64,000 bases of DNA from Eledone cirrhosa. Its lineage: Eukaryota. The notes beneath the pieces are model-generated. The model was not told the origin of the DNA, searched no databases, and saw only the letters and a program-made list of their open reading frames with translations. The stretch is taken from positions 6,820,001 to 6,884,000 of the forward strand of contig OZ024753.1 of assembly GCA_964016885.1 (NCBI GenBank). Direction: 5' to 3'. A program made the translations under genes and the position numbers. Shown here in pieces: positions 8,445-64,000 of the stretch (position 1 is its first letter; each line of letters begins with the position of its first letter).

Positions 8445-8600
8445 TAATTTCTGAAGACTCGGCTATGCTTTTTATATGGTTATACTTGTTTATATTTTCG
8501 GAAACGTTACGAGTCTCTTCCTGCTATTTCAATCGTTAACCTATTATATCCCTTCCATATAATGTACCGATTGTGTTGTTATTTCTGTTTACCTTTTACA
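8445..8600 (+). mobile_element. Hammerhead-type element, family I (degenerate)
   Basis: CTGAAGA at 8451 and GAAACGTT at 8501. The 3' tail is shared with 23880-24005, 48998-49130 (-) and 62915-63072 (-). Confidence 0.55.
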
Positions 8601-8911
8601 TACATACACACACACACGGGTGTGTGTGTGTGTGTGTGTGTGTGTGTGTGTGTGTGTGTGTGTGTGTGTGTGTATATGTGTGGTGTGTGGTGTGTGTGTG
8701 GTGTGTGTATGTGGTGTGTGTGTGGGTGGGTGTGGTGTGTGGTGTGTGTGTGGTGTGTGTATGGTGTGTGTGCGTGTGTGTGTGGTTTGTGGTGTATGTA
8801 CGTGCGTGCGTACGTGTATGTGTGTGGTGTGTGTGTGGTGTGTGTGGTCTGTGGTGTGTTTGTGTATGTGTATGTGTATATATATATATATATATATATA
8901 TATATATATAT

Positions 8912-9026
8912 ATCCCGGGTTCAATCGGGTGTGACCACAGTAAGTAAGGTATTCAATACATAGCAGAGTATAAATATTTAATATAGAAATAGCTTCTACA
9001 GGACTAGAACTGTTTCATTCGAAGGA
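8912..9026 (-). mobile_element. Hammerhead element family A, 3' half
   Basis: Reverse complement reads GAAAcagttctagtcctgTAgaagct plus the family tail. Flanked by (TA)n on both sides. Confidence 0.75.
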
Positions 9027-9054
9027 TATATATATATATATATTTGAATTTTGT

Positions 9055-9440
9055 ATTTCTAAAGAAATACGGATATATTTATAAATAAACATTTAGAAAG
9101 CCATAGATATGAAAACCACTGGCAGCTAACGCCACCCATCGGTGTCCGACAGAGGAAAGGGGGACAATCGTCGATGCATATCGAACTCAACTGGTTCTTG
9201 TTAGGATGATATGTCCCGCTCTCAAAACTGCTGGACTTCGAAAACAGGCGAGAATATATAATTTTTTTTTGTGTTTGTGTAAATGAGGTGATTAAGTTTA
9301 TTTGCATATGAAGCTGCATGAGTTGGCTCAACTTATAATAGAATAGAATTAAAATTTAGCTTTGAAATTCAAATACATTTGTATACAGCTATTTCCAAAG
9401 AAATTCGTTTATTTATAAACATACCGTATTTCTTTAAATG
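9055..9440. mobile_element. MITE-like element with ~30 bp imperfect inverted repeats
   Basis: aaagaaatacggatatatttataaataaac ... gtttatttataaacataccgtatttcttt. Related partial copies at ~35140-35230 and ~43838-44095. Confidence 0.6.
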
Positions 9441-10823
9441 TGCTTAAAGATCCCCGTGAGTCTTGAAACACTGGATCTCTCGCATGTCGGCTGAGTCTGT
9501 TAGCCTCTACACCAAAGAGATTGACAACAGTTTCCGGCTTTTTAGAACTGCAATATATACAATATTACTGTATATAATTTAACTTGCAATATATACAAAG
9601 CTGTTGACTTAATAAACATTGGAAACATCTGAATTTTGAAGCGCCTCCGTCTATATTTGCTGGCACGAGAGAAACATTACTGGGCTTTCTTAACAATTAT
9701 TCGTAATGTTGACAGACATTTCAAATTTCAATTGTTTCCAATGTTGTTAAGTCAGCCGATTTGATCACATTTTTAGCTAGAGGCTTCACATCTTCTCGAC
9801 AAATATAATTGGGCGCGAGCGTTTCTTTAGCGTTGTAATGGGAAATCCCCATTTTCTCAACTATCATTTATAGTGATCGACTTTTAATATTGTCATTTGC
9901 GTTGGGAGGTACATATTTACAATTTCAAACGTTCTATATTACTGTCTCTCTGTACGACTCTTTAAATAATCCTGCTGTAAGAGATTTTAAATTGAAAATT
10001 AAAAAGAAAAAAAAACTATTCAGAAAACCACTTTACTATACACTTCCTGTGACCGGAAGCAGCCCTCGAAACTAATTATACACTGATAATTAAACATCAA
10101 GTATTTTGTATGTATGTATTTCATCTTCGTCTATTCATATTCAATGCAAATTGTTCTAGATAAATTTCTCTAATTTCAAAATATTTCAAGATTCAAAGTT
10201 GTATTGATTTTCTGGGTTGGCCTCACATCAAACAAGACGAAACAAAAGGTAAAGTTCATTATAGCAACCGTACGCTTTTACTGATGTCGGTTCACAGAAA
10301 TGTATAGAATACCAAGTTGAATATATCCAGATTTCATTTCAGGATCTTCAAGAACGAAAGAAATCAAAATAGAACATTAAGTCCAGTGCTCTAAACCACT
10401 GCAGAAAAGCGGATGGGATATTGTGGAATTGAGATGTTTTGAAATTAAATTGAAATGACTTCAAATAGAAAATGTCCCCTATCATCATTATAATCAGTGG
10501 GTTATAGAATAGAAATTGATAAAACCTTACAAGAATGAATGGCAGTGCAATGTAAAGGTCAATAGAAACTAGTATTTCTAAATTATGTAGTCACATGTGC
10601 TTACGCCGTATTTGAGTAAATAGAATTAGTCTGTAAATTGGGATCTTAAAAACCATCTGAGTGGAAAAAAAGATGAGTATTGATGAACGTGGGACACGAA
10701 CACACATCTTTGGTTTGATGGACCAATGTGTTACCATAAATATTTATATTTATATTTGAAAGTAACATTACAACAAAAAAAGCAAAAGAAAACAAATAAA
10801 CAACAAAAATAATAACAATAATA

Positions 10824-11010
10824 TTTCTTCTTTTGGCACAAGGCCAGTAATTATTCCAGTGCATTACTGGTACTTTATTTTATCGACCACGTAAGGATGA
10901 AAGAGAAAGCTAACCTCGGCGGTATTTAAATCTAGAACGTAAAGGGCCATAACGCTATGCTGTAAAGCATGGTGTCTGACGCTCTACCCATTCTGCCAAT
11001 CCACCGCCCT
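10824..11010 (-). mobile_element. SINE family 1 copy
   Basis: Matches the consensus. Confidence 0.85.
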
Positions 11011-60690: not shown

Positions 60691-60744
60691 CTTTTTTTGT
60701 TTAATATAAGGAATTGTTTGTTCATTATTTGTTTAATATTTTAT

Positions 60745-62242
60745 ATTTATATATATATATATATTTATATATATATATATATATATATATATATATATAT
60801 ATATATTTATATATATATATATATTTATATATATATATATATATATATATATATATATATATATATATATATATTTATATATATATATATATTTATATAT
60901 ATATATATATATATATATATATATATATTTATATATATATATATATATATTTATATATATATATACATATATTTATATATATACATATATATATATATTT
61001 ATATATATATATATATACATATATATATATATTTATATATATATATTTATATATATATATATATATTTATATATATATATATTTATATATATGTATATAT
61101 ATATATATATATATATTTATATATATATATATTTATATATATATATATATTTATATATATATATATATATATATATTTATATATATATATATATTTATAT
61201 ATATATATATATATATATATTTATATATATATATATTTATATATATATATATATTTATATATATATATATATATATATATATATATATATATATATATAT
61301 ATATATATTTATATATATATATATTTATATATATATATATTTATATATATATATATTTATATATATATTTATATATATATATATTTATATATATATTTAT
61401 ATATATATATATATATATATATATATATATATGTAGATAAATCTACCAAGAGTTTACGGTAGTGTCCAATCCGTATATATATATATTTATATATATATAT
61501 ATTTATATATATATATATATATATATATATATTTATATATATATATATTTATATATATTTATATATATATATATATATATATATATATATATATATAAAT
61601 ATATATATATATTTATATATATTTATATATATATATATATTTATATATATATATATATATATATATATATATATATATATTTATATATATATATATTTAT
61701 ATATATATGTATATTTATATATATATGTATATTTATATATATATGTATATTTATATATATATATATATTTATATATATTTATATATATTTATATATATAT
61801 ATATATTTATATATATATATATATTTATATATATATATATATATTTATATATATATATTTATATATATATATATATATATATATATATTTATATATATAT
61901 ATATATATTTATATATATATATATTTATATATATATATATATATATATATATATTTATATATATATATATATATTTATATATATATATATATTTATATAT
62001 ATATATATATTTATATATATATATATTTATATATATATATATATTTATATATATATATATATATATTTATATATATATATATATTTATATATATATATAT
62101 ATATATATTTATATATATATATATATTTATATATATATATATATTTATATATATATATAGCTTCTCGCTAAAACAATTTCTATACCTTTCATTTATATAT
62201 ATATATATATATATATATATATATATATATATATATATATAT
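60745..62242. repeat. (TA)n block containing a 42-bp family G terminus at 61433-61474 (-)
   Basis: gtagataaatctaccaagagtttacggtagtgtccaatccgt is the reverse complement of ~43448-43489. Confidence 0.9.
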
Positions 62243-62914
62243 AATAGTAATTCTAGTTTAGTACTCACTTTAAGGATGCGAATGATTGTTTCCATTAAAT
62301 TATTGCACCTTTTAGACAACAGACAGAAACTTGAAAGTAATGTTGGTATATATCTGGAGTGCGAGTACCTTACTTTTTCTGTTTTATTAACTTCACAATT
62401 TTCACTGAAGATCCTCAGACAATTCCGGGATTTGTACAACTAACATTTGTGATAAGACCTCTTTATGTAACTGATACTAACAGTTCATCATTGGTGAAAG
62501 CGGCGCTGATTTGGGTATATATCAATATTTTAGATATTTTATATTAATTGATTCGATTATCGATTGGTCGATATTAATTATATTAATTTTATAAACAACC
62601 CTAATTAATCTGTGGGTATGTATCAATGTTTTTTGATAGTTTAAGTTAATTGATCTGATTAATGAGTTGTCGCTAAATGAATTAATTTTCTTGATAACCC
62701 TAATTAATGTGTTTAATATAGCAACTACACTACTAAATCTGTATGAAAGTACTCCTTGGCCTGAATTAATATAGTATTAAGTAAGTTAGTACGTGGAACG
62801 TGATGTGATGACATTGATGTACAAAGCCGCGTGTACCCGCGTGATTTCGAAAAGTTATTAGGGTACGCGAGCGCACATACAAATACACACGTGTGTGTGT
62901 GTGTGTGTGTGTGT

Positions 62915-63072
62915 ATAAAGGTTAAATAGACATAAGAACACACTCGGGACATTATATGGAAGGAATATATTAAGTTCTCGCACGCTTGAAACAGCAGGAA
63001 GAGGGACTTAACGTTTCGGACGCTAGTCCTTCATCAGAAGAGAGAATGAGAAATTAGAAAGATTGAAGGGTC
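62915..63072 (-). mobile_element. Family I element with minimal hammerhead at 63007-63040
   Basis: Reverse complement reads ctt-CTGATGA-aggac tagc gtcc-GAAA-cg-TT-aag. Confidence 0.72.
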
Positions 63073-63833
63073 ATATATATATATATATAACAAGCAAGTT
63101 TGTTTTGAATATACAAGCGAATTTGAAAATAGAAAAAGAAGCTTTAGCCTGAAAGAAAAGTCAGCCTGATAGTGGGGTTTAGAACCCTCTAAGAGAGAGA
63201 GAGAGAGAGAGATAGAGAGAGAGAGAGGGTTTGTGTTAGTGTAATTGTAAATATAAATATATATTCATGAGCATACATACACGTTCACACCTACATATAT
63301 ATAATATATACATATATGTGGGTGGAGGTGTATGTGCGTGCGTGTACGTGTGCGTGTGTGTGTGTGTGCGAGGATGCGCGTACGTGCGTGCGGGAATGTG
63401 GACAGGTTTCTGCGAATAGCTACGTTCATGGTGATATGAGAATGGAGCTGATTTTACGTTTGATAGTAACGCTGAAGAAAAGGAAGAGAATGAAAAACGA
63501 TGACGATGATGATAATGATGATGATTGTGGTTGAGCTATCACGGTGTTGTAGGTGTAGGTGGCGTCGATGAAGATCGTAATGATGAATATGACTAGGATG
63601 TTGACAAGTTGCATGTCTTAATCGATTTCAACATGAAACTGGGGGTGAACCTGTGTGCATCGATCTGTCTACTGGGTGATTAATCTATAACATGTCTTTA
63701 TACCAACAGGAATTCGAATGTAGGAGTGTGTGTAAGGAAAGAGATCAAAAGTAGTAACATGAAAAGTGCAATGTTATAAACTCGATGAGTGAGAAGGGCG
63801 GATTAGATACATACAATCATATATATATATATA

Positions 63834-64000
63834 TTTTAATATAGATGAGATTCTACAGGACTAGAACTGTTTCATTCTTTAGAAATCATCAGGATTCCTG
63901 ATGATTTCTAAAGAATGAAACAGTTCTAGTCCTGTAGAATCTCATCTATATTAAAACTTTTATACTCTGCAATGTATTGAGTACCTTACTTACTGTGGTT
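63834..64000. mobile_element. Family A fold-back element (perfect 123-bp palindrome plus tail)
   Basis: 63834-63956, centred on 63895. Confidence 0.88.
63892..63942 (+). ncRNA. Type I hammerhead ribozyme (family A)
   Basis: ggattc-CTGATGA-tttc taaa gaat-GAAA-cag ttctagtc ctg-TA-gaatct. Predicted cut after A63936. Confidence 0.85.

Follow-up and report, generated by a model that had tools for sequence, protein, structure and literature searches.

The short islands that separate the microsatellites in this stretch of Eledone cirrhosa DNA (the window, 64,000 nt) are, judged from their sequence, pLTR-end pieces of endonuclease-bearing Penelope-like retroelements (PLEs), mostly of the Hydra clade, lying within (TA)n, together with two short protein-less repeats. 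The element kind itself is already known and the head-to-head shape of the copies is the known landing pattern of PLEs; new here are the pairing of one long with one short 3' end and the occurrence of non-overlapping arms in PLE copies. The reading that we prefer, at a probability of roughly 0.7, is that the islands are such PLE copies, whose two arms were likely primed separately from each cut strand, at one short and one long fixed site in the RNA.

Insertions in the window

In the part of the window that was analysed (8440-64000, 55.5 kb), 36 insertions were catalogued, representing 13 families and two orphans (Table 1); these come from 38 raw rows, after removal of a low-complexity row at 12932 and merging of the two arms of the long copy at 56418-60747. 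Family letters (A-O) were assigned in this analysis and are not equivalent to those of the preliminary description, which came without definitions. The fold-backs, (TA)n flanks and one-sided 3' extensions that it reported were all seen. Both arms are present in 20 of the 36 insertions, so that the common architecture ascribed to the islands holds for the majority and not as a universal rule; likewise, the high density is real, and with 1 insertion per 1.5 kb exceeds the proposed one copy per 2-3 kb. The families had also been called unrelated, which was not confirmed: sequence comparison shows G and L to have ribozyme and 3' end in common, and one short motif is common to 8 of 11 family tails.

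A genome sample of 99 evenly spaced 10-kb stretches (990 kb) held 162 insertions of the window families only, which scales to about 490,000 short copies in 3.0 Gb. With all families pooled, (TA)4+ occurs within 60 nt of 137 of these 162 insertions, versus 20% of random sites.

Table 1. Insertions in the analysed part of the window
Position	Strand	Feature
8440..8604	+	K copy, variant long stem II
8914..9025	-	A single arm, long end, 3' half of hammerhead (Hydra pLTR)
18433..18600	+	L 3' end, relative of G
18871..18990	-	I copy, 3' part; no ORF link found
19064..19405	.	F two-armed copy; complete type I motif at 19186 (-); Hydra-like tail motif
19761..19946	.	B two-armed copy, 3' half motif only (Hydra pLTR)
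20917..21046	.	A two-armed copy; core at 20958 (-)
23320..23560	+	G single arm; complete minimal motif at 23377
23866..24007	+	K decayed copy
29366-29404, 30041-30237, 31173-31264, 43515-43648		B additional copies
29500..29912	.	J two-armed copy of ~425-nt ORF-less tandem unit (retrozyme-like); core decayed
30275..30670	.	C two-armed copy, one long + one short end; complete motif in each arm (30461 -, 30570 +)
30718..31010	.	I two-armed copy
31623-31777		L second copy
32949..33137	.	B two-armed copy, long + short end; junction within loop II
37557..38208	.	E two-armed copy, long + short end; C3-A4 variant core in both arms (37711 -, 38139 +); pLTR of element with intact 713-aa Hydra ORF
38966..39755	.	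D two-armed copy, long + short end, of 518-nt ORF-less tandem unit (retrozyme-like); complete motif at 39215 (-), core also at 39620 (+)
40515..40654	.	A two-armed copy; long arm ends at short-end site, hence arms share almost nothing
41050..41455	.	C two-armed copy; complete motif in each arm (41228 -, 41355 +)
41497..41870	.	M two-armed copy (Hydra pLTR); core decayed; end coordinate set by eye
42970..43490	.	H two-armed copy; very long stem II insert
48863..48998	.	A copy; core at 48888
48994-49117	-	K copy
49365-49450		A small remnant
51746..52065	.	E two-armed copy + third partial arm
52148-52230	-	A tail
55653-55690		E 3' end
56418..60747	.	H long two-armed copy; 2001-bp arms, 99% identity, into low-complexity 3' UTR
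61432-61476		H tail remnant
62908-63075	-	K copy; complete minimal motif at 63037
63834..64000	.	A two-armed copy; complete motif at 63898 (+); cut off by window end

Hammerhead motifs and coding parents

The islands carry type I hammerhead motifs with covarying stems, i.e. predicted ribozymes. A strict descriptor gave 4 matches in the region versus about 0 in 100 local dinucleotide shuffles, and a relaxed one 12 matches versus a mean of 0.075 and a maximum of 2 in 200 shuffles, both descriptors having been composed after the data had been seen. Eleven relaxed matches fall in families, with core boxes, three stems and NUH site present; the match at 44495 belongs to no family and is probably due to chance. 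In the genome sample the strict descriptor matched 46 times (0 in 5 shuffles) and the relaxed one 89 times (2, 4 and 2 in shuffles). Exact-pattern counts ran from 800 to 52,348, with 0 for reversed controls. The motifs thus exceed chance, their frequency in shuffled sequence being far below that observed. The Rfam hammerhead model, which had been proposed as a check, gave no such confirmation, with 0 matches at gathering score in the window and 6 loci; an E-value scan of Rfam was set aside, the best 150 of 600 rows being microsatellite matches to miRNA models. Stem covariation, likewise proposed, is upheld: double changes are in excess in A (43 rows, 90% paired, 26 double-change cells versus 13.2 expected, reached by 0 of 500 shuffles) and in G/L (15 rows, 16 cells versus 6.0, 3 covarying pairs), whereas only 2 pairs covary in A, and 451 of 500 shuffles do as well; since the rows were chosen by motif regex and are mutually related, the support is modest.

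The half motifs of B are explained by copies that end inside loop II, and the full B ribozyme, found like the complete J motif in loci outside the window, has a U3-A8 core. This core variant is among the features shared with minimal PLE hammerheads in the available part of PMC4209133 (Cervera and de la Pena 2014), as are an extra nucleotide after A9, a palindromic stem III, many families per genome and opposite-strand pairs 100-700 bp apart; an A at position 4 of the E core (C3-A4 variant) and stem II inserts of about 70-125 nt in H and I set the present motifs apart. H was missed by the descriptor because of a 3-nt bulge before GAAA. Predicted folds of single motifs are mostly not stabler than shuffles, and the lowest-energy predicted fold of A, E, F and K is not the hammerhead. 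By eye, 5' ends do not accumulate at the predicted cleavage site of A.

The search for RT and GIY-YIG ORFs, which the preliminary description had suggested, led to coding PLE ORFs in 8 of 13 families: A, B, C, E, H and M run directly into Hydra-clade RT/GIY-YIG ORFs elsewhere in the genome, and G and K into other Penelope-like ORFs. On this evidence these eight are short copies of autonomous elements and not a separate non-autonomous system. What stands of the PLE/retrozyme-like system first described is its Penelope-like origin, its type I hammerheads, its microsatellite targeting and its inverted arm with longer extension, while the term non-coding is right for the copies in the window, where no PLE ORF matches were found, and wrong for most of the families.

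For E, one locus (L392) holds a tandem of pLTR, intact 713-aa ORF and pLTR with a period of 3258 bp, and 150 scored matches have 96-100% identity. B, C and subfamilies of H are ORF-linked at genomic loci, the A tail runs into the ATG of an ORF, and M is linked at locus L389. At 4 loci G is found on the 3' side of a canonical RT/GIY-YIG ORF, at a distance of 158-195 nt, and K, at one locus only, 3' of a GIY-YIG ORF end that we take to be Neptune-like. Links for F and I were sought and none found (one I region being interrupted by other repeats), the single F pLTR-to-pLTR unit observed has no ORF, and L had no ORF link of its own in the data analysed. Three leads were dropped: a Pfam GIY-YIG route, in which window families near the 50 loci examined were nested in (TA)n and not ORF-continuous; a fixed palindromic master for C, for which the query spanned the junction and which is also ORF-linked; and the idea of an A without long parent.

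The Hydra elements, as far as the available part of PMC8557442 (Craig et al. 2021) describes them, are PLEs with a C-terminal endonuclease (EN+) that lie in (TA)n and carry hammerheads, including Hydra-1_Obim of Octopus bimaculoides. The ORF at L392 has the marks of this clade, i.e. DKT, a CxCX5C linker, no CCHH, and CxxC and CxH around E and N; the C-terminal marks also occur in fragments of B, C, H, M and A, the (TA)n target is the same, and the hammerheads of A, E and J have the U.U pair flanking stem II. By eye, the N-terminal and RT blocks of the E ORF look like the printed Hydra-1_Obim protein. Compared with the same source, the E and A ORFs have RWR at the site of the RWK motif, the E unit measures 3.26 kb instead of under 3 kb, tails are 58-137 nt instead of 30-40, and 72 Hydra-type EN C-terminal fragments form 19 clusters at 70% identity (at least two being broken copies of others), versus one published octopus Hydra family. 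The 713-aa ORF aligns weakly to a canonical PLE ORF in RT and YIG (E-values 2e-6 and 0.005), and Pfam RT or GIY-YIG profiles gave no match to Hydra-type ORFs. ORF-derived DNA makes up 2.1% of the 990-kb sample.

Paired 3' ends, 5' walls and the ORF-less units

Each family has two fixed 3' ends, 58-137 nt apart. Among 114 two-armed copies of A, B, C, E, G and I, 81 were classifiable at both ends (33 were not), and 79 of these combine a long with a short end (binomial versus 0.5, p about 1e-21), the exceptions being one long-long and one short-short copy; in the evenly spaced sample and window alone, with 46 two-armed copies in all, it is 29 of 29 classifiable. J and D, in which microsatellite noise and tandem wrap, respectively, defeat the BLAST classing of ends, lie outside the 79/81 count; classed by end motifs, D (4/4) and J (6/6) are also long plus short. 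The near-fixed pairing likely reflects separate priming from both cut DNA strands. In 33 of the 79 pairs the arm with the short end extends beyond its partner on the 5' side by more than 10 nt; since each arm then holds sequence that its partner lacks, neither can be a copy of the other. The long arm ends at or beyond the short site in 14 of 79, and in 36 of 79 the starts of the two arms are no more than 10 nt apart. Identity is 96% between arms versus 91% to the reference, and no mixed-family junctions were seen.

At their 5' side, five families have a sharp wall on an initiator-like site, a putative transcription start. Of 47 A arms, 31 have their end no more than 7 nt from C3, which lies some 30 nt behind a TATA box that six references retain. 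The wall comprises 63 of 79 arms within 18 nt in B (none at 19-66), 15 of 30 at 139-150 in M, 28 of 33 within 85 in I, and 29 of 34 at 40-64 in C, the last figure being inflated by loci fetched with a junction-spanning query. J 5' ends cluster at 33; no wall was seen in F or in E, the latter being biased by ORF-selected loci. The walls of A and B also look like a splice acceptor, and those of C, M and I, located upstream of the ribozyme or otherwise outside it, have a TCA motif and no AG.

D and J are ORF-less head-to-tail units of 518 nt and about 425 nt (420-430-nt arrays), respectively, with one type I hammerhead each, whose upstream sequence wraps into their own 3' end; no ORF continuity was found in 30 + 30 loci, and no tRNA in D or J loci. 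In this organisation they resemble the non-LTR retrozymes, which are likewise small repeats without an ORF, arrayed head to tail with one type I hammerhead each, and for which PLEs are proposed helpers (PMC7229834; Li et al. 2026, bioRxiv 10.64898/2026.07.22.740005). In the accessible parts of these sources, the helper case rests on co-occurrence and pLTR similarity (PMC7229834, Cervera and de la Pena 2020; bioRxiv 10.64898/2026.07.22.740005), and 1 of 9 Xenopus dimers cleaved (bioRxiv 10.64898/2026.07.22.740005); D and J go beyond it in that their copies bear the PLE insertion signature (10/10 long plus short, within (TA)n). The retrozyme reading thus fits D and J, and perhaps F, and fails for A, B, C, E, G, H, K and M, which, unlike retrozymes, are continuous with coding ORFs. 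D and J likely use the same enzymes as Hydra-type PLEs.

Origin of the inverted arms

In the proposed mechanism an RT/GIY-YIG protein would cut both strands of (TA)n, upon which each 3' end would prime on RNA at one of two start sites. In the pLTR-ORF transcript these sites would lie shortly behind the transcription start and 45-55 nt before the ATG, leaving most cDNAs 60-300 nt of template before they run off at the RNA 5' end; for this reason short copies would be more numerous than long ones and would end at an initiator-like site. The two cDNAs, overlapping little or not at all, would then be linked head to head; priming at the pLTR downstream would account for longer copies, and D and J would likely borrow the same enzymes. 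The hammerhead would be copied uncleaved, its role probably being RNA processing and not integration. In L1 twin priming, cDNA synthesis on the element RNA starts from both target strands and results in an inversion, with the second primer at variable internal sites and the inverted part not duplicated, whereas here both priming sites would be fixed and the arms usually overlap.

The published PLE insertion unit is an inverted 5'-truncated copy with a tail at one end only (PMC8557442), which the present inverted, truncated copies with their one-sided tail (79/81) resemble. For Anolis Poseidon, the available part of PMC11167929 reports that both strands are cut and extended, that two internal RT start sites bound the tail, and that uncleaved RNA is used, the enzyme being a predicted dimer and the hammerhead dispensable for insertion; in two characterised PLEs the TSS lies within the pLTR (PMC8557442, in part). 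Relative to what is accessible of these two papers, the long-plus-short rule, the non-overlapping arms and the initiator-site run-off are stated only here, and, judged by listings, no report of Penelope twin priming or strong-stop run-off is evident in the open-access literature searched. A more far-reaching version, for which we see about even odds, would make PLE integration an obligatory twin priming, in which the two cut strands would each be coupled by a dimeric enzyme to a fixed start site of their own in the mRNA 5' leader. The usual outcome would then be a pair of short, strong-stop-like run-off cDNAs, which here would have given rise to about half a million copies; D and J, with the same footprint, would show directly, at the genomic level, that retrozymes are moved by Hydra-type PLE enzymes, and the tail motif of 8/11 families would be a candidate recognition signal.

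The same elements could instead have gained their inverted arm as a DNA-templated snap-back copy of the first cDNA, with short copies being random 5' truncations. The likeness of the arms, the lack of mixed-family junctions, the 36 pairs with nearly coinciding starts and the junctions that, by eye, often lie on short palindromes would all suit such copying, which is nevertheless contradicted for the non-overlapping pairs and made unlikely overall by the 33 pairs with sequence unique to each arm and the 14 with little or nothing in common, just as the non-random 5' ends in A, B, M and I speak against random truncation. Alternatively, twin priming could be correct with the wall being a splice-acceptor boundary or RT stalling at the ribozyme structure, and not a transcription start. 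The A and B walls lie beside pyrimidine-rich AG sites, the A wall is the 5' edge of stem I, and the Drosophila Penelope intron ends at helix I (PMC4209133, in the part available); however, no constant upstream exon was seen at junctions by eye, the C, M and I walls have TCA without AG and lie away from the ribozyme, and the A TATA box stands at the expected distance, so that we consider this possibility rather doubtful.

That all families are independent, non-autonomous and retrozyme-like, as first described, agrees with the ORF-less tandem units of D and J, the sole F unit seen, the lack of an ORF link for I or L and that of PLE ORF matches in the window, but is refuted for the eight ORF-continuous families and very improbable as a whole. 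Chance motifs in AT-rich DNA or assembly fold-back artefacts hardly deserve credence: while Rfam is silent at gathering score, single-motif folds are unremarkable and one long copy adjoins an assembly gap, the exact-pattern counts and the shuffle and reversed controls refute them, and the covariation and the family-specific asymmetric ends also argue against them.

As regards the masking as simple repeat that had been thought probable, Penelope-like elements were entered as a TE order in a 2026 octopus annotation (PMC13282606). With Hydra ORFs and ribozymes invisible to Pfam and Rfam, about 490,000 copies and 2% of ORF-derived DNA can be mislabelled. The findings bear on the origin of inverted, tailed PLE insertions and on what moves animal retrozymes, and both questions are testable by counting and one in vitro assay, because in this genome each family is present in tens of thousands of young copies, one ORF is intact, the start sites are fixed and there is a candidate for the signal motif.

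Insertions and candidate ribozymes

The window lies within a 47-Mb contig of a 3.0-Gb animal genome, and self-comparison with microsatellites masked returned numerous short islands that recur, as well as inverted pairs close together. With one low-complexity row removed and the parts of one long copy merged, 36 insertions were counted at 8440-64000, 20 of them with both arms (inverted, head-to-head element copies), which confirms that the fold-back islands seen earlier between microsatellites are real. The genome sample (99 evenly spaced stretches of 10 kb) held 162 insertions of the same families, on both strands in 54 cases, with (TA)4+ at most 60 nt away in 137 (background 20%). 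Its density is one insertion per 6.1 kb (~490,000 if scaled to the genome), and that of the window is ~4 times as high. Exact-motif counts, which refer to arms and are lower bounds, were at least 52,348 for family B, 20,859 for A, 14,824 for J and 8,125 for M, and at least 3,226, 956 and 800 for the rarer I, F and D (reversed control motifs: 0).

Candidate type I hammerhead ribozymes can be drawn from these sequences, as complete folds for A, C, D, E, F, G and K from window copies and for B and J from loci outside the window. The B core is of the U3-A8 type already published (PMC4209133). Since its window copies end within loop II, B was rightly described as a half motif there, although the full fold can be drawn at other loci. 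A, E and J have a U.U pair beside stem II, a Hydra-clade pattern in the supplement of Craig et al. 2021 (PMC8557442). A strict descriptor gave 4 matches in the region versus ~0 in 100 local shuffles, and a relaxed one 12 (one outside any family) versus a mean of 0.075 over 200, so that with both the motifs are more frequent than in shuffled sequence. Stem covariation was also found: A shows compensatory changes in stem I, and G/L in stems I-II (cell count above all 500 shuffles); they are limited to 2-3 pairs in mutually related alignment rows. Rfam at gathering score returned zero matches in the window; in predicted folds the isolated motifs were mostly not stabler than shuffles, and several favoured non-hammerhead folds. 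By eye, several canonical PLE (Penelope-like element) families around Pfam GIY-YIG matches elsewhere in the genome (L019-L068) have hammerhead-like 3'-end motifs with a U3-A8 core and palindromic stem III, which a C3-G8-only descriptor would overlook.

Coding parents and family identity

It is nearly certain (probability roughly 0.95) that the islands are PLE ends. The window itself contains no PLE ORF matches, and longer copies elsewhere in the genome continue into ORFs. For E, the 3' UTR and then the ORF end are continuous in three sampled loci, and at one locus (L392) an intact 713-aa ORF is flanked by two E pLTRs (the hammerhead-bearing terminal parts); 150 scored relatives are 96-100% identical. 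Its protein has DKT, CxCX5C, CxxC and CxH and lacks CCHH, all described as marks of the Hydra clade (PMC8557442), and reads RWR where that clade has RWK. By eye it resembles the printed Hydra-1_Obim protein of Octopus bimaculoides, a likeness that, with a SINE resemblance, makes an octopus the probable host; a Pfam search left it unrecognised, and its RT aligned weakly, pairwise, with a canonical PLE ORF. Other Hydra-type ORFs are linked to B, C, the H subfamilies, A and M. At 4 loci G, of which L is a relative, follows a canonical RT/GIY-YIG ORF at a distance of 158-195 nt, and at one locus K comes after a GIY-YIG-type ORF end, presumably Neptune-like. The system had been described as non-autonomous, which fails for A, B, C, E, G, H, K and M with their PLE ORFs and stands for the ORF-less arrays of D and J. 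I, N and O are not among the assigned families.

Nor are the families unrelated, as had been claimed, because 8 of 11 tails share one 8-letter degenerate motif (picked after inspecting the data) 40-63 nt before the long one of their two 3' ends, versus 0.33 expected from shuffles; it was not found in D, J and G. A second copy is seen ~5-25 nt beyond the long end, ahead of an ATG, in E, M, F and A (L392, L389, L388, L208).

Other features of the window and of loci elsewhere in the genome
Feature	Position	Remarks
N, two-armed island	window 55396-55941	no hammerhead core; arms separated by E 3' end and (TA)n; zero copies in 990-kb sample
O, lone core-like motif at 34536	window 34500-34968	directly ahead of 119-bp tandem repeat; zero copies in 990-kb sample
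H inverted repeat	window 56418-60747	2001-bp arms, 99% identical; adjoins 200-N gap; much apparent microsatellite is the element's own 3' UTR (94.8% to locus L078, 2.3 kb)
80-bp tandem array and non-LTR-like coding fragment	window 3264-4275 and 49800-50190	by eye, 80-bp unit resembles 3' end of the fragment near 49800-50190
Decayed LINE-like fragments and very abundant SINE-like repeat	window 1-3200, 5700-6050	also many short copies
Short copies of the LINE-/SINE-like set	e.g. 355-957, 4984-5717, 32045-32724	
Young LINE-type RT frames	L388:759-2186, L391:1354-3300	near-identical; nested within PLE copies

Arm pairing and 5' walls

In each family examined, the 3' ends fall at two fixed sites separated by 58-137 nt, which match the two RT start sites described as bounding the tail of an Anolis element (PMC11167929). 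For A, B, C, E, G and I, 114 two-armed copies were compared; both ends could be assigned to a class in 81 of them, and 79 of the 81 pair a long with a short end, compared with at most 50% under independent choice. The two arms of a copy are 96% alike and mixed-family pairs were never seen, an indication that both derive from a single RNA or from sister RNAs. That the second arm is a snap-back copy of the first would also fit 36 of the 79 pairs; however, in 33 the short-end arm extends further 5' while the tail is confined to the other arm, each thus holding sequence missing from its partner, and in 14 the arms barely overlap, so that both arms must derive from RNA. Together with the published cutting and extension of both target strands (PMC11167929), the pairing and arm data are best read as twin priming, which is the probable origin of the arms: each cut target strand would prime a separate cDNA from the element RNA, at different fixed start sites.

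The transcription start sites (TSS) of characterised PLEs are located in the pLTR (PMC8557442). In several families the arm 5' ends pile up at a sharp wall, with 31 of 47 at most 7 nt from C3 in A, 63 of 79 within 18 nt (and zero at 19-66) in B, 15 of 30 in M, 28 of 33 in I and 29 of 34 in C, where the sample is biased. The walls coincide with TCA or CCA sites, which are initiator-like; six references of A have a TATA box 30 nt ahead of the wall, and an ATG follows ~45-55 nt past the long site in A, E and M. From wall position, these sites, the TATA box, the ATG distance and the TSS in the pLTR, it seems that the walls may well reflect run-off at the TSS, where cDNA synthesis would leave the mRNA 5' end and produce short copies. 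The rival is a splice boundary or RT stall, and the run-off model gives no account of E and F, whose arm 5' ends form no wall; D has none either, as expected from a circular or multimeric template. Long T runs at the arm 5' junctions of four loci (L005, L009, L268, L345) would fit RT slippage at a short stretch of U close to the end of the RNA.

Known kinds and ORF-less units

The elements are real and of already known kinds. Published work describes Hydra PLEs that sit in (TA)n and bear hammerheads of this type, among them one from O. bimaculoides (PMC8557442), as well as inverted copies with a one-sided tail (PMC8557442; PMC11167929) and retrozymes (PMC7229834; Li et al. 2026, bioRxiv 10.64898/2026.07.22.740005), and a 2026 octopus repeat paper (PMC13282606) lists Penelope-like elements, its main text being silent on hammerhead, ribozyme and Hydra. 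The pairing rule, the wall and the retrozyme insertion-signature argument were not found in the open-access texts and search listings covered.

In D and J, the upstream sequence wraps round to the element's own 3' end, giving array units of 518 nt and 420-430 nt, and none of 30 loci each showed ORF continuity; the one F unit seen has Hydra-like signals without an ORF. All two-armed copies of D (4/4) and J (6/6) pair a long with a short end, and it is likely that D and J are mobilised by PLEs.
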